A stretch of DNA of 64,000 nucleotides, taken from the NCBI GenBank assembly GCA_964016885.1, contig OZ024747.1, positions 30,318,001-30,382,000 of the forward strand, read 5' to 3'. The stretch's first letter is position 1; each line of letters opens with the position of its first letter. The DNA is from Eledone cirrhosa (taxonomy: Eukaryota). Below, piece after piece: positions 22,701 to 62,982 of this stretch. The position numbers and the translations under genes are program-made. The notes beneath the pieces were generated by a model. It did not search any database and had not been told where the DNA came from. It worked only from the letters and a program-made list of their open reading frames with translations.

Positions 22701-23459
22701 TATTTTTCATATTACTTATACAATACTGTCTTATTTTTCAAAGTCATAAATACGCACATCACTCAATCCTTTCTCCTTTTTAATTCACAATAGCGAATCC
22801 CTGCAGGACAGAATACAGTCGCTCACTTAAACTTTCCAACAAATACTAACCAAACTGCAACAATTCAAACTAATTAAACCTTATTTTGCCAAGTGATATT
22901 TTTAGTCCAAAGGATAATTTGAGTCATATTATCTATAGCACCATACAATTGGCAATAACAAATTCCTATAAATAAATGTGATTATTACTTATGACACTCT
23001 ACTCTCTGTTATGTTTAGAATTGTCAATTCTGATTGAGAAGACTTATAGGGTCAAAAGTAATCCAATCATGGATACCTATCCTATTTAGAGATATTGTAC
23101 ATCTAGAACTACATTATCTCCAATGTACTCTTCTCGCTTTTTAAAAACAGGCTAGGATGTCATCTGAGGAAGATCTGATTGCTATTTCTAGCTTCCTCAC
23201 TGCTTAAACATGTAATAATCTTACAGTGAAAATATAATTATTTCTTAACTAATCAACATCTCACATCTAGTTTACCTTGGAGCAGTTTAATACATATTGG
23301 CTTCTTCTATGTAACTTAAATGAAAACAAAAACAATAAAAACTATAATCTTGATAATAAAATAGCAATAACAACAATAAAAAAATAATCATCACCCCCTG
23401 CCAAAAAGTTGGTATTCATAACGAGTCATCATGTTGTACCTGCTTAATTTTTACATGTT

Positions 23460-25807
23460 AATAATTGTTTCTACTTTTGGCACAAGGCCATCAATTACCC
23501 AGTACATTACTGGTACTTTATTTTATCGACCCCATAAGGATGAAAGGCAAAGTTAACCTCGATGGGATTTGAACTCAGACCGTAAAGAGACGTAACTATG
23601 CTAGAAAGCATGGCGTCCAACCCAATTCACCGTCCTGCATGTTAATAATAATACATGTTAATAATAATAATAATAATTGTTTCTACTTTTTGGCACAAAG
23701 CCAGCAATTATCCCAGTGTATTACTGGTACCTTATTTTATCAACCCCGTAAGGATGAAAGGGAAAGTTAACCGTAGCAGGATTTGAACTCAGACCGTAAA
23801 GGGCCGTAACTCTATGCTGCAAATCATGGCCTCTGACTCTCTACCGATACTACCAATCCACCGCCCTTATATCAGTAATAATAGTAATAATGGTTTCTGA
23901 TTTAGGTACAAAGCCAACTATGTTAGGTGAAGGGAAAGTCAATTAAATGAACCCTAGTGCATTACAGGTACTCTATTTTATCAACCATATAAGGAAGAAA
24001 AGCAAAGCTAATCTCAGTAGGACTGGAAATCAGAATGTAAAGGGACATAATTCTATGTTGCAAAGCATTACCAATACCCCAACCCATTGCCCTACTACTA
24101 ATAATTGTTTCTACTTTTGGCACAAAGCCAGCAATTAACCAGTGCATTACTGGTACTTTATTTTATCGAACCCGTAAGGATGAAAGGAACTCTATGCTGC
24201 AAAGCATGGCATCCGACCTTCTACCGATACTGCCAATCCACCACCCTAATACTACTAATAAGGAATAATAATTGTTGCTACTATGGGCAGAAATTTCTTG
24301 AGAAGGAGTTTCTACACTAAGATTATTAAATACATCTATCTCAATAATCTGTTAAATAATATTTTCAAATTCTATGATTGGAAGGCATATTCATAGAAAT
24401 TTAAATCTAAAGGTGTAATCTGAGTTTTTCGAATATTAATAATTACATTCGATTCGTTTGCAATTATGCAAACAAGCCTCAATTTTATAGCCATGTCAGT
24501 AGAATGAACCCTTCATTCTTGCTCTTGTGTTGGTATGTGAACAGATCACATGCCAACACAAGAGCAAGAATGAAGGGTTCATTCTACTTACATGGCTATA
24601 AAATTGAGGCTTGTTTGCATAATTGCAAACGAATCGAATGTTATTATTAATATTCGAAAAACTCAGATTACATTTATTGTATTCAGCCATGTAGAGCAAC
24701 AATTTTTTTAAAAATTTAAATCTAAAGGAATGCCTTCATATTCTCATCCTACACACACGCACACACACAAGTCTTAGATTTAGTCTTTATTGTTGTCAAT
24801 AGTACAACTTAAAAGAATACGAAGATGTTGCTGATAATAATGGTACTAATTTTGGTACAAGGCCAACAATTTTGGAGGAGGGGAAAGTTGATTAAATTGA
24901 CTCCAGTGCATAACTGGTACTTTACTTTATTGATGCTGCAAGGATCAAAGGCAAAGCTAACTTTCGCAGGATTTGAACTCAGAATTAAATCTCTGACACC
25001 TTAAAATTCTGCCAATAATGATTCCTTATATTGGTATTGGTACAAATTCAAAGAATTGTAGTGGTAGAAGATATAATAAACTGAATTGATTCCAGTAGAA
25101 GCCTGATACTTATTTTATGTAACCCAGGGTGGCAGGTATGAAAGGCAAAGTTGGCTCCAGCAGGATTTGAACTCTAGATGTAGAAAGATGACATTCAATA
25201 CTGTATGACATTTTGTACACCACTCTGTCATATCTGACAGACATTTCACTACTTTTTACAACAACAAAAACAATAATAATAATTGTTTCTACTATTGGCA
25301 CAAGGCCAGCAATTACCCAGTACATTACTGGTACTTTATTTTATCGACCCCGTAAGGATGAAAGGCAAAGTTAACCTAATAATGGTTTCTGATTTAGGCA
25401 CTATGCCAACAAATTTGCGGGATGGAGAAAGTCGTTTAAATTGACGCCAGTGCATTATTGGTGCTTTATTTGATCGACCTTGTAAGGATGAAAGGTAAAG
25501 CTAGCCTTGGTGGGATTTGAACTCAGAATGTAAAGGGCCGTAACGCTATGCCATAAAGCATGTTGTCCGACGCTTTACTGATACTGCCAATACACCCTTA
25601 ATAATAATAATAATAATAATTGTTTCTACTTTTGGCACAAGGCCAGCAATTGCCCAGTACATTATTGGTACTTTATTTTATCGACCCCATAAGGATGAAA
25701 GGCAAAGTTAACCTTGGCGGGATTTGAACTCAGATCGTAAAGGGACGTAACTCTTTGCGTCAAAGCATGGCGTCTGACTCTCTACTGATACTGCCAATCC
25801 ACCGCCG

Positions 25808-25847
<40 letters not shown>

Positions 25848-26020
25848 CAATATTTAACATAGGCACATTTCCCGAAATTTTGGAGCAAGGATCAATCTCG
25901 GTAGTTATGTTACTTCATTTTATTGATCCAGAAATGATAAGATGCAAAGCTGACTTTGATGGGATTTGAACTCAGAATGCAAAGAGCCAGAAAAAATACT
26001 GCAAGACATTTTGTCAGACA
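23460..26020 (-). mobile_element. Cluster of about 10 same-orientation SINE family 1 copies separated by (AAT)n tails
   Basis: Recurring ttgtttctacttttggcacaaggcc or ggtttctgatttaggtac starts near 23464, 23676, 23890, 24103, 24840, 25040, 25281, 25382, 25619 and 25855. Confidence 0.88.
24414..24672. repeat. Near-perfect ~260-bp palindrome inside an insertion flanked by 17-bp direct repeats
   Basis: Arms tgtaatctgagtttttcgaat...gtgttggtatgtga and tcacatgccaacac...attcgaaaaactcagattaca. aaatttaaatctaaagg occurs at 24397-24413 and 24712-24728. Confidence 0.93.
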
Positions 26021-27702
26021 AAATAATGAATTCTCTTTCCACACATATATATAGTCGTACTCTACTATCCCAAGTATCGAGTACTCTGTTAGTTGGGCCC
26101 CAACTCTTCCTAATATATATATATATATTGACAGTGCTTGTCAAATATCTTTTTCTGTTTCACATACATTTTTCCATGGGTAGAAAGATCTCATTGCTGC
26201 AAAAATTTTTATTTTTTAATGCTTGATACATTTCCCCCATTTCTGCAAAATATTCAGCCTTGAATTAGAAATAAAATCTGAAGTCTGTCAGACAAGCCAA
26301 CTGAAAGAAGCAGAAATATGTATCTTGTTTAGAGATGCATAATATTGCTTGTAGTAAGGTTTAGTCTAATGACTATGTCAGTAGTTCATAATTCAGCTCC
26401 TTATTTTCAACAGTTATTCTGTTCAGATCAGAATTGCTTATATGAAATCTTTCTAATACTTCATCTTCTTCTTGTAGGAATTCACTGCTGTAAACACTTT
26501 CCTGTTTGAAACGCGTCAGATTGCTTGACAACTAAGCTTGAATCTTTGAATAATGTTAAGTGGAAACAATTTAATAGTGTCTCTATGTTCTTAATGAGGG
26601 AAATATGGATAGGGATGATAATTAGAGAAATGAGGGTGATGCTGGTCATTATGTTAATGATTAGAATGGCATCAGTAATTATTAAAGTGTTTTGTCTGTC
26701 ATTTGTTTTTAAGCTTTTGATGACTGTAAAAATAAAAATTAAATTCAGTTTAATATCATTAACAACAACCACTCTAGAACCCACGCAAAAAAGGTTTGTA
26801 ACCGATTCAGATATTTGAATGTTGATTCCTTGCTCTACATACATGCTCCTCCCATTTCAAATTACTAATGTCTGACTAATATTTATGCATGGTTTTCTAC
26901 AAAAAATCAGCTAAGATCACAGATCACAGACTTTAAACATGCTAAGACTCTGTAATGAAAGATGAAAATCCTTGTGAACAATTAGGATATTCATTTTAAT
27001 CTTCGGATTTTCCTACATCAACGCAAGTTGATGATATAATACAGATGAATCATGAAATTTGGACAAGAAACAAATAATCAAACAGCAGCTTGTTGATCCA
27101 GAGTGTCCAAAGAATCTTAAACAAGCATAGTGTTTGTAATGATCTAGTCCTTCCATGGTCACCAAGTAAACAAAAAATAATAAAAGAAAATCTGTTGAAG
27201 AGGAAAGTATTTTATGATATTTCAGGACCACTAGTGATATGAAGGATATGTATAATGCAAGGTGTTTCTCATCTTGTTACACAAGATATCTAAAGTATTT
27301 CAAAGTGGTTAGAAGTGTTCTGAGTTTTAGCGATCACACGACTATGACTTCTAATCAGACTATTAATTTAAAAAACACAAATATATGCAATCTCTTTCTT
27401 CTAATTATAAAATTGTATGGAAACAGAAATGAGCTATCAGTTAGTCTTCATTGGGTACCTAGTGTTGTTCTTTCTTTGTTTATCTCAACGATCGCTCACT
27501 CAACTCTTGAGTAGATGATGGAGAATGACATCAGATTTATAGAAGTGTTAATTATATTTCTTTCAATCCGCTTCTTCAATGATGAAAGGAGACTGGAGAA
27601 TAGAGATGGCAACTGAAACAAGGCATGGAAATGATGACGAGAATGAATTTTAAACATCTGTGTCATTTTAATATTTTCAGTTGGATTTTGTGACATTCAT
27701 TG

Positions 27703-27704
<2 letters not shown>

Positions 27705-27754
<50 letters not shown>

Positions 27755-28180
27755 TAATAATAATGGTTTTTGATTTAGGTACAAGGCCAACAATTTTGGG
27801 GGAAGAGGGAAGTCAATTAAATCGACCCTAGTGCGTTACTTGAACTTTATTTTATCGACCCTGTAAGGATGAAAGGCAAAGTTAACCTCGGCGGGATTGA
27901 ACTCAGACCGTAAAGGGACATAACTATGCTGGAAAGCATGGCGTCCAACCGTCTACTGATACTGCCAATTCAATGATTTCTAATATAAGGACAAGGACAG
28001 AAATTTAAGGGAGGGGACAGTCGATTATTTCAATCCCAGTACCTGACTAGTACTTATTGTATTGATTCAAGAAGGATGAAAGACAAAGTCTACCTAAGTG
28101 GGATTTGAACTAAATATGTAAAGAGACAGAAAAAAACCCACAATGCATTTCGTCTGATGCTCTAATCATTCTCCCAATCA
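27705..28180 (-). mobile_element. (AAT)n tract plus two tandem SINE family 1 copies
   Basis: Matches to the SINE consensus near 27763-27970 and 27975-28180. Confidence 0.82.
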
Positions 28181-51458: not shown

Positions 51459-51665
51459 AGTCACATAGAGATATAGGTAGATAGATAGGTAGATAGGTAG
51501 GTAGTCACATAGATAGATATATAGATATGTAGGTAGGCAGTCACATAGAGAGATAGATAGGTAGGTAGATAGATAGGTAGGCAGATACGCAGTCACATAG
51601 ATAGGTAGATAAGTAGGTAGATAGATATATAGATAGGTAGTCACATAGATAGGTATATAGATATA
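51459..51665. repeat. Composite (GATA/GGTA)n minisatellite with a recurring AGTCACATAG unit (5 copies)
   Basis: agtcacatag near 51459, 51503, 51539, 51591 and 51639, separated by GATA/GGTA runs. Confidence 0.9.
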
Positions 51666-51868
51666 TTTCTTTATTTACCATAAAGGCATAAAAAGAAGGG
51701 ACAAATACAAAGGGGGAGTTTACATATAATCGAGTAAAAAGGGTGTAACATGAAAATAATCGAAAATAACCTCAAAAGGGAGGGGACGTGATGGGGGTTG
51801 CACACACCCCCGAAGAAGTGTGCAATCCTTTGCCCGGGGAGCACACGGAGAAGGTGCTCCCCTCTCCT

Positions 51869-54800
51869 TTACTTCTTTACCCACAGGATGGTATACAGAG
51901 AAGGCCCACTTACACGAGCCATTCTCGCCACTATCACCCACCTTTCATAAAACTGCCTGTGGCCAAGCACCTCTCTCTCCATTCTTATCCTTCTTCCGAA
52001 GTGATATCGGAAGAAGTAGACCAGACTATGGCCAGAGAGGAAGTTGCCTGACCTCAGACCTTTCAATCGTGTCCACCAAACAACCTCTTTCAACATGGCT
52101 ATTACGCACAGAAAAACCGCCTTTGCTTCCTTTGTGAAGAGGGGAGGCGGTTTGATTGTCATCACGGACTCGGCGGTCAATTTAATCGGCTTCACCCGCG
52201 ACAGCAGTCGTTCGGCGTAGCACACAGATCAGCCACGCCCGGACATTGCACCAATGCGTGCGCAACGGTTTCTTCGTGACGCACGCATCTAGGGCAAATC
52301 TTTTTTGAGGGATCCCTGCCCGGGCGCCCGTGTCTGTAGAGCCTCTCTCAAACGGGTAGAGCCCCCCGGTAGCACTGCCAGGCCAGTGACTTCTGGAAGT
52401 TGTCCATTGGTCCCGGGCCGAAAGTCCTACCGAACAGGCTGGCCAGTTCATCTTCTTCCATGTCCAGCGACTCTCCAAGGGTGTCATCGCCCCTGCTAGC
52501 CACCAGCCCTCTATAGAATGATGAGGTGGATTCTCCACCGATGGCCTGGCCCGCTTGCCAGAGAGCCCTGAGCGCCTGAGCACACTCAGTGTGCCAGTCT
52601 CCCAGTTTTCCGGATCTTTGCTTGACCCAGGACTGTAGCTCGGTGAGCGAGATGAGTCTCGGAAAGGCTTGTTTCACGAACGGAGCCCACATCGGTTGAC
52701 CAGTGAGGAATACCTGTAGGTGCCGTAGCCTTAATGCGTGCCTACGCATCATCAACCACGGCATCCCCAGCCCTCCTTTCGAAGGTTGTTGGCAGCAGAT
52801 GGATCTTCTCACCATAGGAGGGCGCTTCTTCCAAAGAAATTGGAAGAGCATGCGTTCCATGGTGGTGAGTGTTTCCTTAGGGCAAGGCACGACAGTCAGG
52901 CGGTAGTAAGTGACGGACGCTATGTAAATGTTCGCCACCTCCGCCCGGCCTTTTAGGGACAGCTTACACTTGGCCCATTTCTGGGTTAGTGCAAACACCT
53001 TGTTCGTAACCTCGTTCCAGTTCTTTTCCACCTGGAGGTCCGGTCCAAACCAGACCCCAAGCAACTTTACCGGGCCCTCCGTCCAGTGTCCGACGACACC
53101 GTCAGGAGGCATCGGTCTGCCTCTCCACGTTCCGAGTTGCAGCCCGATGGATTTTTCCCGGTTCAGTTTCGCTCCTGACAACCTTTCGTACTCCTCCAGT
53201 AAGGTACCGATCGCCTCGATCTCCGAGTCGGTCGATACCATTACTGTTACGTCATCGGCGTAGGCCGACACCGCTTTGCTCAATCCTGGTTCCAGGGGGA
53301 TACCCTGCAACAACTCCAACTTCCTCAGTAAAGGCTCGAGAGTCAATACGTACAGAAGGGAGGAGAGAGGGCACCCCTGTCGAATGGATCGTGTGATTTC
53401 GAATGGCTTCGAAAGGTAGCCGTTCACCTTGATCCTAGAACAGATGTGGTTGCTATGTAAGGCAGTGATCCAGCCTCTGAAAACAGGACCGAACCCAGCC
53501 GCCGCTAGCACCGCATCCAGGTAACCATGGTCGACCCTATCGAAGGCCTTAGACTGATCCAAGTTGATCAGGGCCCCACCGAAGCCGGGTTTGTTGCCAA
53601 CCCTCTCTATGATGTATCGCATGAGGTGGAGGTTATCGTGAATGGACCTGGATGGGATAGCACATGTCTGCGCATCTCCCACCAGGCCACCCACGACAAG
53701 CGCCAACCTCTTTGCTAACACCTTGGCCAAAATCTTTAACTCTGTGTTTAGCAGGGTTATGGGCCAAAAATTATTTATACTATCTCCCTTGTTCTCGTCC
53801 TTCCTCACCAGCGTGACTATGCCCTTGGCTACAGAACAAGGAATTCTCCCGTTCTGCTGCCAATTGCAATAGACCGCTTCGAGGAGTTCGGAGAAGAAGA
53901 CCGGCATTGCTAAATAAAGTTCGTAAGGTATACCATCGAGACCTGGAGATTTGCGTCTGCTGCATTGGCTCAGCGCATCTCCGATTTCATCAGCCGAGAT
54001 TGGTCCCTCGCAGGACTCTACCTCTTCGCTCGAGAGACGCGGCAGGCCGTCGAGGTATGGACCGAAATCCACGCCCCCGCCCGGACCCTCGCCTCCCCGG
54101 AACAATCGGGCAAAGTGCCTTTGAAAGGCCTCGCACATCTGCTTAGGCTCCCGGATCACCCGTCCATCTTCGTCTTGCAACGACCGGATGGTGGATCGAT
54201 TTCCACTCTTAGCTTCTGTCACGCGGGCCCAGCCAACGGCTTTGGCCCCCTCATTACCTAGAGCACGTATTTTACTTCGAATGACGCAGCCTTCGTGCTT
54301 TGCATCGAAAAACTGGTTCAAGGCCGTCCTCGATGCCAGCACTCTGGCCACATCTTCGCTCTTGATTGCCTCTTCTAATTTACCTGTTAATTCTTTCTCG
54401 TTTCTATTCCTATCGGCAGCTAACATCTTGCTATAACTTATTGATTCTGTTCTAATCTCTCTTTTGAGAGATGCCCACCATCGGTTGTTGACGATTGCAC
54501 CCGTCAACCTCTCCTTAACTAATCTGCTAATCCGGTTTCTGTAAGTCTCTTTTGCCGGTAAAGACAAATTAAGTTTCCAGTAACCGGGACCCTGTTTATG
54601 TGTTTTCTCGAGATTGACTACGCAGGTCACTAATTTGTGATCCGTGTAGCCAACCGTGCGCATTTCTGGACAGCTTAATATGTCCCTATCCTTACTTCTA
54701 ACTAAGAATCTATCTAAGTACGATCTAGATTGACCACTGTGGTTTCTCCAAGTCCAGGTAGGCACAGTTGGAAAATCTAGTCGATATCTATCGACCAAGT

Positions 54801-55317
54801 TAAAACGGTCGAGTAACCCCTTGAGGCTGTTACACCCCCCTCTATTAGGACATGCTCCTGCATAGTCCCAACGTGCATCTAGGATGTCATTCCAATCCCC
54901 CGCTAGAAGCAGGGAACGCGATGTTCCCAGAAAAGTCTCCAAACGCTGGAAGAAGTCGGGCCGTTCAGCTCCGAAAGGGGAGTAGACGGCAACCAGTCTC
55001 AAGGCCGCACTTTCACTACTGCCAACGTCTAGCACCAACAAACGACCCTCCGGGTCCGAGTGCACAACCTGTACGGCAAGACCCAGGTGTTTTTGCAGCA
55101 GTACGACAACCCCACCCCCACCTCCAGGTTGACAGAGAGATGCATGCACCTCAAAGTCATCGAAGGTGGGGGCCAGCTGCCGCACGACGCTGATTCGAGT
55201 CTCACAGATAACCATTACATTTATACTACATGACCTGAGGTCATTTAGAAGCTTTGCTTGCTTCCAAGTTGAGCCCAGGCCACGTGCATTCAAACATCCT
55301 ACTCTTAACACATCCAT
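51869..55317 (-). CDS. Tx1-like ORF2: APE endonuclease, reverse transcriptase, CCHC finger. 989 codons are open, followed by one nonsense codon (52348-52350) and a 1-nt deletion near 52224
   Basis: EN motifs CLNARGL, ICETR, AVYSP, AGDWN, SYLDRF, TDH. RT motifs KSPGLDG, PITLLN..KILAK, LDQSKAFDRV, IRQGCPLS, AYADD. Beyond the stop: CPRCVRHEETVAHALVQC. Confidence 0.93.
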
Positions 55318-55350
55318 GTGGGCGGCAGAGCCAAAGGAGAGTGTAGAGAC

Positions 55351-57254
55351 CTACCTTTCCGCTTCCCGGGGTTCGGGTTGCACGACTTCCATGGGGTCGG
55401 GGGTGTTGGGTGAAGGGGTGTCTCGTGGTGGTGTGGGGTCGTCAGTGTGTGGTGGGGTTGGGGTGTTTGGAGTTGTGTTGGGGAGGGGAAGGGGAGGGGG
55501 AAAGCTTTTTAGTAGGACGCGGTTTATGGGTTTGACAGAGGGTGGTCCTACGTCCTCCTTAAAATCCTTTTTTAGTTTTTGGTAGAGGTTCATTGGGATC
55601 TTTATTAATTTTAAATGTGGGTAGTTTTCTGAAGAAACAAAGTTTACACCTTCGGTTTGTACCAAAGGATTATTGTATATGAGTTCATTTAATTTATTAT
55701 TGTTTCTGTTGATGTAAGTATAGTGTAATGTCTTTTTTTCGGATGGTGTGAGTGTTTCGAAGAGGGGAGGGGCAGGTTTGGTTTTGTTTGTTGCTGGAGG
55801 GGTGTTTTCTGTTTTGTTGGATTGTGTTGAGATTTGGGTGGGGGTTGTTTGGTCTTGTGTGTTTTGCACATGTTTTCTTTTTTTCCTTTTAATCTGTCTG
55901 AAGGACTCCGTTTCTTCCTCCGAATTCGTTGGGTTATCTTCAGTGTTGGAGGGAAGAGGTATGTTTGCTGGTAATGTTTCCGTGTTGGTTTTCTTTGTGG
56001 GGGAGATGGATGTCACTATGTTAGACTGTGTTGTGTGTTGTGTCTGCGGTGGTTGTGTTGTTTTATTGAGTGAGAGGTTGGGTGGGCCTGTATTTTGTTT
56101 TGGGGTAATGTGTTGTGACTGTTTGTGTTGTGGTGGTGGTGTGGTTTTACTGAGGGACGGGTTGGGTGGGACTGAGTTTTGTTGTTTGTTTATCTGTTGT
56201 GGTGGTGGTGGTGGAGCTGATGTTGGTAGCAGGGTTTTCTTTTTGTTGAGTTGGGGACAAGCGGCCTTCAGGTGCCCTCTGCCTGCACAGATATGGCAGG
56301 ACAGCCTTCTCCCCTCCACGCTAATGTTTATATACCCGTGGTCCTCTAATAGGATTCTGTCGGGTATTTGGGCGATGCGTTCAGGCTTCATTTGCACTAC
56401 CAGCTCTATACCTGTTCCACTGAACGCATTGCCTGTGGTTTTCCCAATGGAAATCACGTTGTCATTCACTGGATCGATGAAGCCAGCTATGAGCCAGCAG
56501 TAGTCCACATCTGGCATCATTGCATCCAGCCATATGCGTTGAGTTCTTTTACCCATATAAGATGGATAAAAGGTAAAATTTTTCGAACGAATCGGTGACA
56601 AAGCACATTTTTTTGCCGCCGATTCGTTCTTCATGATAATTGCTAGGCTTCCATACAGTCTGTCTTTTCTTATGAAAGTGGTTTCATTAAGTACTTCTGT
56701 GAGTACTGTTTTGATATCTGCTTGAGAAGGCTGTTCAGGTTTTTTTGTACTGTTGTTGATGGTCCGAAACTTGACCGTTCGGCTTTCAATGTCTTTGGTG
56801 AATTCTTGAGGCATTTTTACCGATAAAATACCATTCTCTCCTTCACTTATGTATTGTTTGGCGTCTGTGATTCTTCGTGCCACATCTGAAATATTTTCCG
56901 GTATATAAGTCAAAGATTTCTTTGTTTTCTGTGCAAATGAAATCTTGTCGTCTGCTTTGCTTTCTGTTATGGTGTTATTTTCAAATGTTATTTTTGTGTT
57001 TGTTGTGTCTTTGTTTGTGTTATTAGTATTGTCATGCAATTTTTCAAATTTTTTTTTTTTTTCGTTGTTGGAATCCATGTCCAGATTTGTGTTTTCGTCA
57101 TTTTTTTTCTCCACAGATTCGTCTGTTTTTATTTTAATTTTTCCTTCCTTCTCTATGACGTTAGTTGGGAAGGAAGGGGGGGACTAAAGCGTGCGAGCTT
57201 ACAACTCTTACCGCTGTCCCCTCCACCACTATTTTCGTTCGCTGCGTTTAACAT
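55351..57254 (-). CDS. Tx1-like ORF1 (nucleic-acid-binding, CCHC zinc knuckle, Pro/Thr/Asn-rich linker, conserved C-terminal domain)
   Basis: 587-aa ORF 55351-57114 with CHICAGRGHLKAAC. The probable ATG at 57254 would join it via a 1-nt indel in the G7 run near 57176-57182. Homologous remnants occur at 815-1450 and 61883-62980. Confidence 0.85.
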
Positions 57255-57519
57255 TTCTGTTAGACGATTGAAATCTTTTTGCCACAAAATTTTTTAAAAC
57301 AGGTTTTTCACCTCTAGGAGGGGTAAAGATGAGCTGACCCACTGCCTGACAGTTCAGACGGGGGGTCAAGCTACACAATTGTATCAAAATTAAATTTGAA
57401 CTCACAAAATTTCCGCAATAAATTTGAACAAAACTTCTGCGCGAAGTGAATTACATCCACACTGTAGAACAGACGACAGCTAGATTGATAGGTATATTGA
57501 TAGGTAGGTAGATAGATAA

Positions 57520-58170
57520 ATTTCTTTATTAGCCACAAGGGCACAAAAGAAGGGGACAAATACATATGGGGAGTTTACATACAGGTATATGAAAATAAAA
57601 CTAGTAATAAAACAACAAATAACAATTGAAATCCCCAATAGGGGGGGGGGTTACACAGGGGTTGTACACACCTCGAAAAAAATGTACAACCCTCATCTTC
57701 AGGAGCACCAAGAGTGAGTACTCCTTTCCTCTTTTTCCTCAACCTACAGGCTTATATAGAGAGAAGGCCCAACCACTCGGGCCATCTTTGCCACATTCAC
57801 CCACCTTTCATAAAATTTGCTGGGGTACAGCACCTCTCTCTCCATCCTGATTCTTCTTCCAAAATGATATTTGAAAAAACAAATCAGTTGTTCGCCGGAG
57901 AGAAAGGTATCTGACCTCACCCCTTTTAACCTCGTCCACCATATAACCTCTTTCACCATAACCATAACACATAGGAAAACCGCCTCTCCTTCGTTTTTAA
58001 AGGAGGGTGGCGGTTTGATAATGACAATGGACTTGGTGGTCAACTGGATTGGTCCCACCCGCGACAATAGTCGTTCTACATAGCCCCACAGGTCGGTAAC
58101 GCCCGGGCAGTGTACAAATGAGTGCGCAAGAGTTTCGTCTTCGCGCATGCATCTTGGACAGATCTTTTTC
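57520..58170 (-). mobile_element. 5'-truncated 3' fragment of family B Tx1-like LINE
   Basis: ORF 57744-58148 (REDETLAHSFVHC...WWTRLKG) is the ORF2 C-terminus. Same 3'UTR, with TA/GATA flanks. Confidence 0.9.
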
Positions 58171-58203
58171 GAATATATATATATATATAGGTAGGTAGAT
58201 ATA

Positions 58204-61200
58204 TTTCTTTATTTGCCACAAGGGCGCAAAAGATGGGGACAAATACAATTGGGGAGTTTACATACATGGCGTGTAAAAATGTATAACAAAAATAATGAAT
58301 AAAACAAACGAAATCCCCAATAGCGGGAAGGCGTTACACACCCCCCAAAAAATGTACAACCCTCATCTCCAGGAGTATGAAGAGCGAGCACTCCTCTCCT
58401 CTCTTCCTCTTCTTCCTCGACCTACAGGCTTATATAAAAAGAAGGCCCAAGCACTCGGGCCATCCTTACCACATTCACCCACCCTTCGTAAAATTTGCTG
58501 GGGTGCAGCACCTCACTCTCCACTCTGATTCTTCTTCTAAAATTATATTTGAAGAAGCGAGCCAGTTGTTCGCCGGAGAGAAAGGTGTCTGACCTCAGCC
58601 CTTTCAGTCTCGTCCACCATATAGCCTCTTTCACCATAGCCATTACACAGAGGAAAACCGCATCTCCTTTGTTTTTGAAAGAAGGTGGCGGTTTGATTGC
58701 AATAATGGACTCGGTGCTCATCCGGATTTGTCCCACCCATGACAGTAGTCATTCTGCATAACTCCACAGGTCGGTAACACCCGAGCAGTGTACGAATGCA
58801 TGCAGGATGGTTTCCTCGTCCCGCACGCATCTCAGACAGATCTTTTTCGAGGGATCCCTGCTCTGTAGAGCTTTTCTCGAACGGGTAGAGCTCCTCGGTA
58901 GCACTACCAGCTCAGGGACTTTTGGAAGTTGTCCATCGGTCCCGGGCAGAAGGTCCTACCGAACAGACTGGCCAGTTCATCTTCCTATACGCCTAGAATT
59001 TCTCCGAGAGCGTTGTCGCAATTGCTGCGCACCAACCCTCTATAGAATGACGAAGTGGAGTCTCCACTGACTGCCGAGTCCGTTTGCCAGAGGACTGTTA
59101 ACGCCTGAGCACATTCAATGTGCCAGTCGCCCATTTTCATCGGTCTTTGCTTGACCCAGACTGCAGCTCGGTCAGCGAGACGAGTCACGGGAAGGCTCGC
59201 CTCATGAAAGGGGCCCACACCGGTTGTTCGGTGAGGAATACATGGAGGTGGTGCAGCCTGAGTGCGTGTTTGTGCATCGTCAGCCACAGCATCTCCAGCC
59301 CTCCGTTTGAAGGGTGTTGACAGCAGATGGATCTTCTCACCAAAGAAGCCCGCTCCTTCCAAAAGAATTGGAAGAGCGCGCGCTCCATTTTGGTGAGCGT
59401 TTTACTTGGACAAGGCACGACGGTCAAGCGGTAGTAGATGATGGATGCTATGAAAGCGTTCGCCAACTCGGCTCGACCTTTCAAGGATAGTTTGCACTCG
59501 GCCCATTTGTGGGCGAGTGCAAACACCTTGGCCGTCACTTCGTTCCAGTTTTTCTCCACCTGGAGGTCCGGTCCGAACCAGAACCCGAGGAGCTTCACTG
59601 GTCCTTCCATCCAGCGTCCGATGACACTGTCGGAAGGTATCAGAATGCCTCTCCACCATCCGAGTTGCAAACCGACGGACTTGTACCAGTTCAGCTTCAC
59701 TCCTGTGAACCTTTTGTATTCCTTCAGTAAGGTGCCGACCTCCCCGATTTGTGAGGTGCTCGACACCATTACTGTCACATCGTCAGCATAAGCCGACACC
59801 ACTTTTCGCAATCCCGGTTCCAACAGGATGCCCTGCAGTAGCTCCAACTTCCGCAGTAGTGGCTCGAGAGTCAGTACGTACAGAAGGGAGGAGAGAGGGC
59901 ATCCCTGTCTGATAGATCGCATGATTTGGAACAGCTCCAAGAGGTAGCCATTCACCTTGACCCATGAGCAGATGTTGCTGCTGTGCATGGCAGCAATCCA
60001 GCCCCTGAACACAGGTCCAAAGCCTGCCGCCGCCAGCACCGCATCCATGTAACGATGGTTGACCCTATCGAATGACTTAGACAGATCCAAATTTATCAGT
60101 GCTCCACTGAAGCCGGGTTCACACCCTACCCTCTCTACGATATATCACATGAGGTGGAGGTTGTTGTGTATGGACCTGATTGGGATTGTGCATGTCTGCG
60201 CTTCTCCCACCAGGTTTTCGACGACAAGCACCAGCCTCTTTGCTAACACCTTAGCCAAAATCTGTAACTCTGTGTTTAGCAGAGTTATGGGCCTGAAGTT
60301 ATTAATGTCGTCCCCCTTGTTCTCGTCCTTCCTGACCAGCATGACTATGCCCTTGGTCACAGAACTGGGAATTCTCCCGTTCTGTGCCAGTTGCAGTAGA
60401 CCGCTTCGAGGAGACCGGAGAACAAGTCTGGCATTGCTACGTAGAATTCATAGGGTAGACCGTCGAGACCTGGTGATTTGCATTTGATGCATTGGCTCAG
60501 CGCGTCCCCTATCTCAGCAGCCGAAATCAGCCTTTTGCAGAACTTCGCCTCCCCGTCCAAGAGTCGCAGCAGACCGTCGAGGTATGGACCAAAATCCATA
60601 GCCCCTCCCGGCGCGCCATACTGCCCCGAATAGTTGTGCAAAGTGCCACTGAAAGGCCGCACACATTTGCTCCGGCTTAAGTATCACACGTCCGTCTTGG
60701 TCCTTCAAAGACCGAATCGTGGACTTGTTGCCACTTTTCGCCTCTGTCACTTGGGCCCAGCTAAAGCTTGGGCCTCATTTTCCAGAGCACGTGTTTTACT
60801 CCTGACAACGCAGCCTATGTGCTTTGCGTCGAAGAACTGGTTCAGGGCCGTTCTTGTCACTAGCACGTTAGCTACGCTGCCACTCCTATTCGCCTCTTCT
60901 ACTTTAACTACTAGTTCCTTTTCAGTCTTATTCCTATCTAATGCTAGTTCTTTACTAAAGCCTATCGATTCTAATCTAATTGCTCTCTTAAGAGAGCACC
61001 ACCATCTGTTGTTGACAATTGCCCCCGTCAACTGCTGCTTAACTAAAGTGCTAATCCGACTACTGTATGCTTTACGTGTCAGTAACGACACGTTTAGCTT
61101 CCAATAGCCTGGTCCCTGCCTATGGGTTCTATCAAGGTTGACTATGCAGGTCACTAGTTTGTGATCTGAATAGGCAACCATGAACATGTGTGGACAGCTT

Positions 61201-62982
61201 AATATGTCCCTATCCCTATCTCTAATTAGAAACTTATCTAAGTACGATTTAGATGTCCTGCTGCGGTTCGTCCACGTCCACAGTGGCGCAGTTGGGAAAT
61301 TTAGTCGGTATCTATCGGCCAGTTGAAATCGGCCGATTAACTATTTGAGGCTGTTACACCCCCCCTCTATCGGGACATGCTCCCACATAATTCCAACGTG
61401 CATCTAGGATTCTATTCCAGTCCCCCACTAAAAGCAAGGAGTGGGACGTTCCCAGAAAAGTCTCCAGACGTTTGAAGAAGTCTGGCCGCGATGTCCCAGA
61501 TGGGGCATATACGGCCACCAGTCTGAAGGCTCCACCTTCACTACTGCTGACAGCTAGGACCACTAGTTGACCCTCCGGCTCCAGATGTATTGTCTGTGTT
61601 ATGAGGTCCAGGTGTTGCCGCAGCAAAACGGCAACCCCGCCCCCACCTTCTGGCTGACAGAGAGATGCGTAGATCTCAAAATCGTCGAAGATGGGGTCTG
61701 TTGCCGCTCGCTGTGGATTCTGGACTCGCAAATGACTGCCACATCCATACTGTGCGACCTGAGGTTGTTTAAGAGTTTTCCCTATTTCCAGGGCATCTCC
61801 AGGCTGCGCACATTCACACATCCGACTCTTATATTGGCCATGCTGGTGAGGAAGAGTTAGAAAAGAAGAGGAAAGAATTCACTTACCTCCTTGCTTCCTG
61901 GAGACCAGGTTGCACAATGTCCATGGGGGTGTTGGAGGGGTTGTTTGGTAGCGTGATTTCTGGCAGGGTAGGGACGGAGATGTTTGGTGGGGAGTGGGTG
62001 TCAGGTGGGGTTGTGGTGTCTGGGGTGGGGGTAGGGAAACATTTCAAAAGGACGCAGTTATAGGGTTTCACGCAGTAATTACCCACATCCTTAGGAAAGT
62101 TTTCTTTTAAAGATTTGTATGTGTCCATGGGGACCCTAATCATTTTTAAATTAGGTCTTTCCAGACAGTATGAAAAAGTTTTCCCTTTGGTCTTCACTGA
62201 AGGGTTGTTGGAGATAACCTCCATTAGAGTTTTGTTTTCAGTATTTATATATGTGTATGTGTAATGTTCTTGTGTTGTGTTGGTTTTTGTTTGTTGTGCT
62301 TGCATGTGTTTTCTTTTTGTTGTAGGTGTTTGTGTTTAGAGTGTTGTCGTTGTTTTGTTTTCAGGAGGGGGCGTTTTTATTTGTGATGTTTGTGTTGTTT
62401 GTGTTGGTGGTTGTGTGTTTGTTGGCTTTTTGTTCGTGTTATGTCTTTTTTTCTTTCTTTTGGTGCAGTGATGATGAGGGGCCTCGTCCGTTGTGGCGTC
62501 TGTGTGATCGGGGAGGGGTACATTTTGGGGAGCTGTTATGCGTGTGGGTGTTTTGGGAGTTGTTTTAGGTGGGGAGGGGTTGGGTGGGACTGTTTTGGTT
62601 ATTTTTGTGTGTTGTTGTTGTTGTTGTGGTGGTGGTGGTGGTGATGGTTGTGCTGCTGTTTCAGGTGTTTGCAGCAGTGCTTTCTTTTTCAGGGTAGTTA
62701 ATTGAGGACAGGAAGCCCTCAGGTGACCACTGCTTAAACAGTGGTAACATGAAGGCCTCCTACCCTCAACAGAAATGTTTATAACCTAGACTCTGTCCAG
62801 AGGCACACGTTGTGGTATTTTAGCTATTCGTTCTGGCCTCATTTGGACCAGAACTTCCAGGCTAGTACCATTAAATATGCTCCTGGAGGACTTTCCTATT
62901 GAAATGAATGTGTCTTCATCAAAGTTGATGAAGCCACATAAAATCCACCAAATATTTACGTTTGGTTGGATGCACAGCACTC
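58204..62982 (-). mobile_element. Degenerate 5'-truncated family B Tx1-like LINE (copy 4)
   Basis: RT ORF 59185-60090 (IRQGCPLS, AYADD), EN fragments at 60747-61841, ORF1 C-terminus 61883-62305, and knuckle CYHCLSSGHLRASC near 62710-62750. It ends in a TAGA repeat. Confidence 0.92.

Follow-up and report, generated by a model that had tools for sequence, protein, structure and literature searches.

The window, the whole 64,000-nucleotide stretch of Eledone cirrhosa DNA analysed here (contig OZ024747.1, positions 30,318,001 to 30,382,000), carries four copies of an L1/Tx1-type LINE, a non-LTR retrotransposon, that keep the junction between ORF1 and ORF2. Membership of Tx1 is likely. A first, sequence-only reading of the window had grouped the four copies in two families; they are in fact four subfamilies in two clades, copy 1 being S3, copy 2 S4, copy 3 S1 and copy 4 S2 (the labels S1 to S18 were coined in this analysis). 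The following features were located.

57255..57486, minus strand: 5' UTR of copy 3, beginning after a (TATC/TACC)n microsatellite
55351..57254, minus strand: ORF1 of copy 3, putatively of CCHC-knuckle type, open at 55351-57183, with a frameshift near the start in this copy
55349..55357, minus strand: 5' splice-site-like motif over the ORF1 stop of copy 3 (S1), phase 2
55318..55350, minus strand: pyrimidine-rich spacer of copy 3, 33 nt, possible 3' arm of a weak hairpin over the donor (z -0.04)
55304..55317, minus strand: ORF2 ATG of copy 3 (55317-55315) and the AG of codon 5, the acceptor of the sequence-only reading
51881..55317, minus strand: ORF2 of copy 3 (AP endonuclease, RT and zf-RVT), interrupted by a premature stop at 52348-52350 and predicted to be a retained intron
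51860..51903, minus strand: position of the ORF2 stop of copy 3, candidate distal acceptor; TGG here, TAG in family members, followed by a purine-rich tract
51665..51880, minus strand: 3' UTR of copy 3, with AATAAA (51670-51675) at its end, then a (TATC/TACC)n microsatellite
57515..58172, minus strand: related copy lacking its 5' part, placed head-to-tail between copies 4 and 3, with its ORF2 stop, a candidate acceptor, at 57744-57746
61881..61889, minus strand: donor motif on the ORF1 stop of copy 4 (S2), phase 2
61828..61880, minus strand: spacer of copy 4, ORF2 ATG (61841-61839) and codon-5 AG
58390..58447, minus strand: ORF2 stop TAG of copy 4 (58424-58422), candidate distal acceptor, flanked by pyrimidine-rich sequence upstream and purine-rich sequence downstream
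5355..5363, minus strand: donor motif of copy 2 (S4)
5294..5354, minus strand: spacer of copy 2, with a strong out-of-frame acceptor-like CTAG (5313-5316), ATG (5307-5305) and codon-5 AG
2064..2066, minus strand: ORF2 stop TAG in the copy 2 region
813..821, minus strand: donor motif of copy 1 (S3)
766..812, minus strand: spacer of copy 1, ATG (779-777) and codon-5 AG

Elsewhere in the window there is a repeat of about 190 nt, SINE- or MITE-like, dispersed and locally tandem in both orientations (11311-11498 and 23459-29175). AT-rich low-complexity tracts (17-19% GC) with long self-inverted matches occupy 12000-14000 and 31900-36100, and the stop-free frames within them are probably artefacts. 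An assembly gap lies at 30857-31056.

Both intact copies examined with Pfam contain PF03372 and PF00078 above cut-off, and PF13966 scored 36.1 and 27.0 bits in them (cut-off 27.5). In the intact relatives ORF2 encodes 1,145 and 1,139 aa and carries zf-RVT at the C terminus; the best match among solved structures is human L1 ORF2p (E 8e-51). In ORF1 the CCHC spacing is visible by eye; the Pfam zf-CCHC match is weak (E 0.32), and Atlas places the protein at 0.92 to zf-CCHC clusters. The host genome searched comprises 3.0 Gb. S1 and S5 are young, intact, high-copy subfamilies: all 30 fetched relatives of copy 3 have identical junction letters, and S5 has at least 140 near-identical matches and an intact ORF2 frame of 1,150 codons. 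In the copies inspected by eye, without a control count, the element ends adjoin (TATC)n or (ATT)n. Full-length young copies form head-to-tail arrays with a spacing of 5.8 kb and up to 10 units among the matches listed (G000 C1:423365206-423418069, C4:157083597-157095630 and C1:348919618-348931306). The ends and arrays together fit the microsatellite-targeting Tx1 elements described in the available text of PMC4494074. The target classes seem to track the subfamily tree, with (TATC/TACC)n in S1, S2, S8, S9, S11 and S12 and (ATT)n in S3, S5 and S14, as read from loci L231-L250 and window positions 51480-51665 and 57487-57515. The 3' ends finish just past AATAAA, and no poly(A) tail was seen there.

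At the junctions, the GT of the donor-like motif lies at 818, 5360, 55354 and 61886 in copies 1 to 4, all on the minus strand, exactly where it had been read before. The window letters also confirmed the spacers of 35, 49, 33 and 41 nt between stop and ATG, and a codon-5 AG ending at 766, 5294, 55304 and 61828, which delimits intervals of 53, 67, 51 and 59 nt. Excision of these intervals, as proposed in the sequence-only reading, is in frame in all four copies. Phase 2 of the donor is confirmed in copy 3 by an open ORF1 frame of 610 codons and backed in copies 1, 2 and 4 by 464, 254 and 149 open codons in the best relatives of their families. ORF1 and ORF2 of copy 3 already share one frame through a spacer without a stop (55318-55353), an arrangement found in S1 alone; read-through of the S1 stop could yield an ORF1-ORF2 fusion without splicing. 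A conserved in-frame Met in good start context (MEV, MEI or MDI) occurs about 13 codons before the ORF1 stop in S1, S2, S5-S9 and S11-S13 (window 55356-55392, minus strand, and homologous loci).

Junctions were gathered genome-wide, and 20 natural representatives of about 18 subfamilies were picked by hand (S3/S3b and S9/S9b being near-duplicate pairs). The window junctions served as seeds for finding S1-S4; most others were found by pattern or protein searches matching the ORF2 start only. The best GT within 75 nt before the ATG was scored against a 9-letter U1-type consensus. The match was 7 or 8 of 9 letters in 18 of the 20 representatives and 6 of 9 in two, counts that are not independent trials because the subfamilies share ancestry. 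Among mock stops, TAA and TAG triplets inside nine ORF2 bodies, 9 of 695 had a site of at least 7/9 in the same register. The motif seen in the four window copies is thus real and conserved across subfamilies. In all five whole elements scored, the junction donor ranks first or second among 260-308 GT sites (second of 306 in a full-length S1 copy). Of 30 loci chosen on their ORF2 start only, 28 have a GT where ORF1 ends; the two exceptions are one spacer loss and one point change. Four-fold sites of ORF2 are 42-69% identical between most subfamily pairs, which makes retention of the donor by descent alone unlikely, and 75-92% identical in the four closest pairs.

One clade kept the donor through a switch from phase 2 (Arg-stop) to phase 1 (Gly-Lys-stop). 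It consists of S5, whose ORF1 is open for 400-500 codons in that frame, and of S6, S7 and S13, assigned to phase 1 by homology of the ORF1 tail. In the subfamily tree, built from 17 of the 20 rows (S16-S18 are too short, and S13 and S15 are long-branched because of a broken ORF2), the phase-1 subfamilies form one clade and the switch is a single event. The donor is absent from three distant L1-like junctions from metagenome contigs (L304, L305 and L309), so it is specific to the clade of these elements. The donor-like motif is very probably under selection. An unselected relic of an ancestral Arg codon and stop is an improbable origin for it. The common ancestor of all subfamilies, the single phase switch and the lack of the motif in the distant L1-like elements are what a relic would leave, but the non-coding +5/+6 letters and the synonymous positions are kept where about half of the four-fold sites have changed, and the motif persists where Arg-stop is no longer spelled. 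Even in the absence of splicing, a frame-independent U1-type site fixed on the ORF1 stop would need explaining. In L231, L234, L236, L237, L238, L239 and L248 another donor-like GTAAG, followed by a T-rich tract, lies about 30-40 nt from the 5' end; it could be a sign of an intron in the 5' UTR or of a U1 site near the promoter, and it is absent at the corresponding place in the window (57440-57486).

The other end of ORF2 resembles an acceptor. In most subfamilies the ORF2 stop has a pyrimidine-rich stretch, CTG, TAG, often a G and a purine-rich run, and AATAAA follows after about 220 nt. In 9 of the 20 representatives, all AGs beyond the donor were scored by a heuristic that rewards upstream pyrimidines, a pyrimidine at -3, a G at +1 and no AG just upstream, and that was written after the site had been seen. 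By this post-hoc measure the AG of the ORF2 stop ranks 1 of 258, 1 of 269, 2 of 270, 3 of 260 and 3 of 254 in five of the nine subfamilies, and 12 of 244, 14 of 263 and 15 of 267 in three. In S3, the family of copy 1, the ORF2 stop is TAA and the next AG comes 7 nt on. The 30 nt downstream of the stop AG are the most purine-rich of all AG flanks in three of the nine subfamilies. In eight subfamilies, the predicted join of the donor to the ORF2 stop would meet the next stop after 0, 0, 1, 1, 2, 27, 32 and 86 codons. A second acceptor-like site near ORF2 +415, which follows a conserved Leu codon, ranks similarly in several subfamilies.

These two sites suggest, with a probability of about 0.4, that the donor on the ORF1 stop pairs with the acceptor-like ORF2 stop, that ORF2 is a retained intron and that its removal gives an ORF1-only mRNA. 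The size predicted for this intron, itself a tentative assignment, is 3.2-3.5 kb, with 3,475 nt in S1 and 3,457 nt in S5. Unspliced RNA would serve as the genome, and ORF2 would be translated from it at the ORF2 AUG, probably through reinitiation of the kind proposed for L1. A fraction of the RNA would be spliced from the donor to the ORF2 stop, 3.2-3.5 kb away, raising the ORF1:ORF2 ratio. The spliced RNA would lack reverse transcriptase, and cis preference would prevent its copying, so that the intron is never lost. A stop in the last exon avoids nonsense-mediated decay, and the position of the donor on a stop codon would put the new stop there. Donor strength may be lowered by a weak hairpin involving the pyrimidine spacer.

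Several observations favour the retained intron: the donor is kept whatever the reading frame, and either donor phase is compatible with this splice; ORF2 has its own ATG; the context of its stop is acceptor-like; and in five of eight subfamilies the frame that the donor sets runs into a stop after 0-2 codons. Against it, the acceptor heuristic is post hoc, the ranks in three subfamilies are 12, 14 and 15, and S3 has TAA. The pyrimidine run before the ORF2 stop encodes protein (P-S-L) and thus may be a by-product of coding. Three of the eight subfamilies would add 27, 32 or 86 codons to ORF1, the site at ORF2 +415 ranks as high in several subfamilies, the hairpin failed its control, and the three distant L1-like junctions have no donor.

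Since the spliced RNA would encode no RT, the retained-intron reading predicts no retrocopies. No retrocopy of ORF1 plus 3' UTR was found among 40 candidates from a pattern with a changed +5 letter or among 13 further candidates; the first patterns were blind to such copies, as the downstream exon often begins with GT. Their absence is expected under cis preference, yet lends the reading no support. Assembled contigs from four runs of unrecorded type, aligned over 54300-57400, gave six joints among those listed, none of them starting at the donor, and one contig of a related subfamily bridges the junction unspliced. As such contigs drop rare variants, their depth does not rank parts and the ORF2 stop lies outside this interval, the result was weighed neither for nor against splicing. 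Mutually exclusive ORF1 and ORF2 exons, with a 5' UTR donor joined to an AG before the ATG, were rejected: many subfamilies have no such AG, and the ORF1 end is kept in 30 of 30 loci picked on the ORF2 start.

The sequence-only reading had proposed a conserved intron of 51-67 nt, from the donor to the AG of codon 5, that would fuse ORF1 to ORF2. Its broader idea, a selected donor through which splicing may set the ORF1:ORF2 ratio, holds up; the short intron and the fusion do not, and are now a very improbable account of the junction. Each of the four window copies would be joined in frame by the excision, AGR is the fifth codon in 31/31, 29/29, 23/23 and 19/26 unbiased copies of the window families, and an alternative in-frame AG close to the ATG exists in some subfamilies (S13 and part of S9 among them). 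A minor isoform in some subfamilies is possible. However, the codon-5 AG is not conserved across subfamilies. The phase-1 donor of S5, S6, S7 and S13 does not share a frame with the AG equivalent to that of codon 5, and this clade includes the young, intact S5. An in-frame AG does occur in this clade two letters further on, preceded by G, and a G before the AG makes a rare acceptor. Codon 5 of S9 is CGA in 20 of 23 copies that were not selected on that codon (one sub-lineage has an in-frame AG in codon 3); in S8 it is CAA in 3/3 unbiased and 10/11 biased copies, with no in-frame AG within 100 nt. Findings of this kind had been named by the proposal itself as contrary to it. S12 would require an intron of 42 nt, and in copy 2 and its relatives an out-of-frame CTAG stands 5 nt before the ATG (5313), upstream of the codon-5 AG. 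The codon-5 AG is not above chance, AGR making up 50-55% of Arg codons in two intact ORF2s. The AAA found at codon 5 in 7 of 26 S2 copies was discarded as evidence, since it forms no clade (5 changes against 6.3 when shuffled). All 20 representatives keep the ORF2 ATG, most of them in a YYAAC- or CCAGC-like context, a sign that translation of ORF2 begins at its own AUG.

If the fusion were made from spliced RNA, cis copying of that RNA should remove the intron from the element. Processed copies were sought in S1, S2 and S5-S7. Patterns of the exon ends followed by non-GT letters gave 0 matches in S1 and S2, against 626 unspliced copies with a slightly wider GT pattern (93 of the first 100 matches listed being S1), and all 13 candidates in S5-S7 were point changes or small indels. 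The spacer-less loci L126, L206, L211 and L385 were rejected as processed copies; they are imprecise deletions, not GT-AG excisions. No fused ORF1-ORF2 protein was found among 693 candidates, a weak negative because the database seems to be without close relatives (3 matches, at most 40% identity). For human L1, the available text of PMC5860796 gives about 1.8% spliced copies and describes cis preference, a rate that need not hold for the element here. L279 and L281, which lie at two chromosomal places, share an identical internal deletion that runs from just past the donor into ORF2; they may be copies of one deletion derivative. L183, L197, L214, L215 and L229 start in or just before the spacer, directly upstream of the ORF2 ATG, which could be a truncation hotspot or only an effect of locus selection.

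Two other accounts do without the distal splice. A U1 snRNP site that blocks premature 3' ends, aids full-length transcription or export, or splices elsewhere (for example to ORF2 +415) is a rather unlikely explanation. It would account for a donor far better conserved than any acceptor and for the additional GTAAG, donor-like and with a T-rich tail, that several subfamilies have about 35 nt from their 5' end, and the U1 site of Evade represses premature termination according to the available part of PMC5580714. However, poly(A) signals in ORF2 are few (0, 1, 0, 1 and 0 internal AATAAA in five elements), and the acceptor-like ORF2 stop would be left unexplained. Less probable again is a termination-reinitiation signal, in which a stop in a hairpin, a pyrimidine tract and a good AUG context do the work and the likeness to a donor is incidental. 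Reinitiation has been proposed for L1 and SART1 (PMC5972666, available text), the ATG is kept in all 20 representatives, and folding predicts a hairpin across the donor in every one of them, with a negative z in 17. The pyrimidine tract can pair with the purine-rich ORF1 end in 20 of 20 folds with mixed z, three being -3 or lower and three above 0. Cognate arms pair better than permuted ones (450 of 20,000 permutations were as low), but the advantage of -0.61 kcal/mol falls inside the range of 18 control windows (-0.96 to +1.36), and on this ground a donor-masking hairpin was set aside as no more than a lead. The four window copies have z of -0.04 to -1.19, and the +3 to +6 letters are conserved although they lie mostly in the predicted loop, a pattern more in keeping with U1 pairing.

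The ORF1 protein of LINEs is needed in much larger amounts than the ORF2 protein. For the two-ORF elements covered in the available text of PMC5972666, ORF2 output is ascribed to termination-reinitiation. If ORF2 is indeed a retained intron, a splice-controlled ORF1-only mRNA would be a second solution, so far known from LTR elements; it would place LINE activity under tissue-specific splicing control and show how an element copied through RNA can keep an intron. Our literature search, in which subscription papers and Repbase reports were thinly covered, found no report of a donor at a LINE ORF1 stop or of ORF2 as an intron, and 'splic' and 'intron' do not occur in the available text of an octopus repeat annotation (PMC13282606).

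Among known systems, human LINE-1 is similar in having two ORFs, a spacer and an APE-RT ORF2, with reinitiation proposed (PMC5972666, in the part available). Splice sites and spliced retrocopies exist in human L1, whereas none of the latter were found here; the spliced copies, found as retrocopies, use a 5' UTR donor, and a donor on the ORF1 stop is not described in the available text of PMC5860796. Kibi and Koshi, microsatellite-targeting Tx1 elements, share the domain order and the insertion beside simple repeats, but target (TC)n or (TTC)n rather than (TATC)n or (ATT)n (PMC4494074, available text). The closest mechanistic likeness is to copia of Drosophila and Evade of Arabidopsis (Ty1/Copia), in which, as far as the available text of PMC5580714 describes, a retained intron is spliced out to leave an RNA for the structural protein only, the unspliced RNA being the genome; in copia the intron comprises all of pol, and in Evade the U1 site is coupled to the production of gag RNA. 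The U1 site of both lies at the end of the structural gene, and a U1-type donor is likewise present here at the end of ORF1. However, copia and Evade are single-ORF LTR elements in which splicing creates the stop, while the elements here are two-ORF non-LTR elements in which the stop pre-exists under the donor and splicing is predicted. By analogy, they would work like gag splicing in copia and Evade without belonging to that group. A LINE clade may thus, and we put this forward tentatively, have converged on the copia strategy, with the whole of ORF2 as a retained spliceosomal intron bounded by two stop codons, host splicing setting the ORF1:ORF2 ratio and cis preference guarding the intron.
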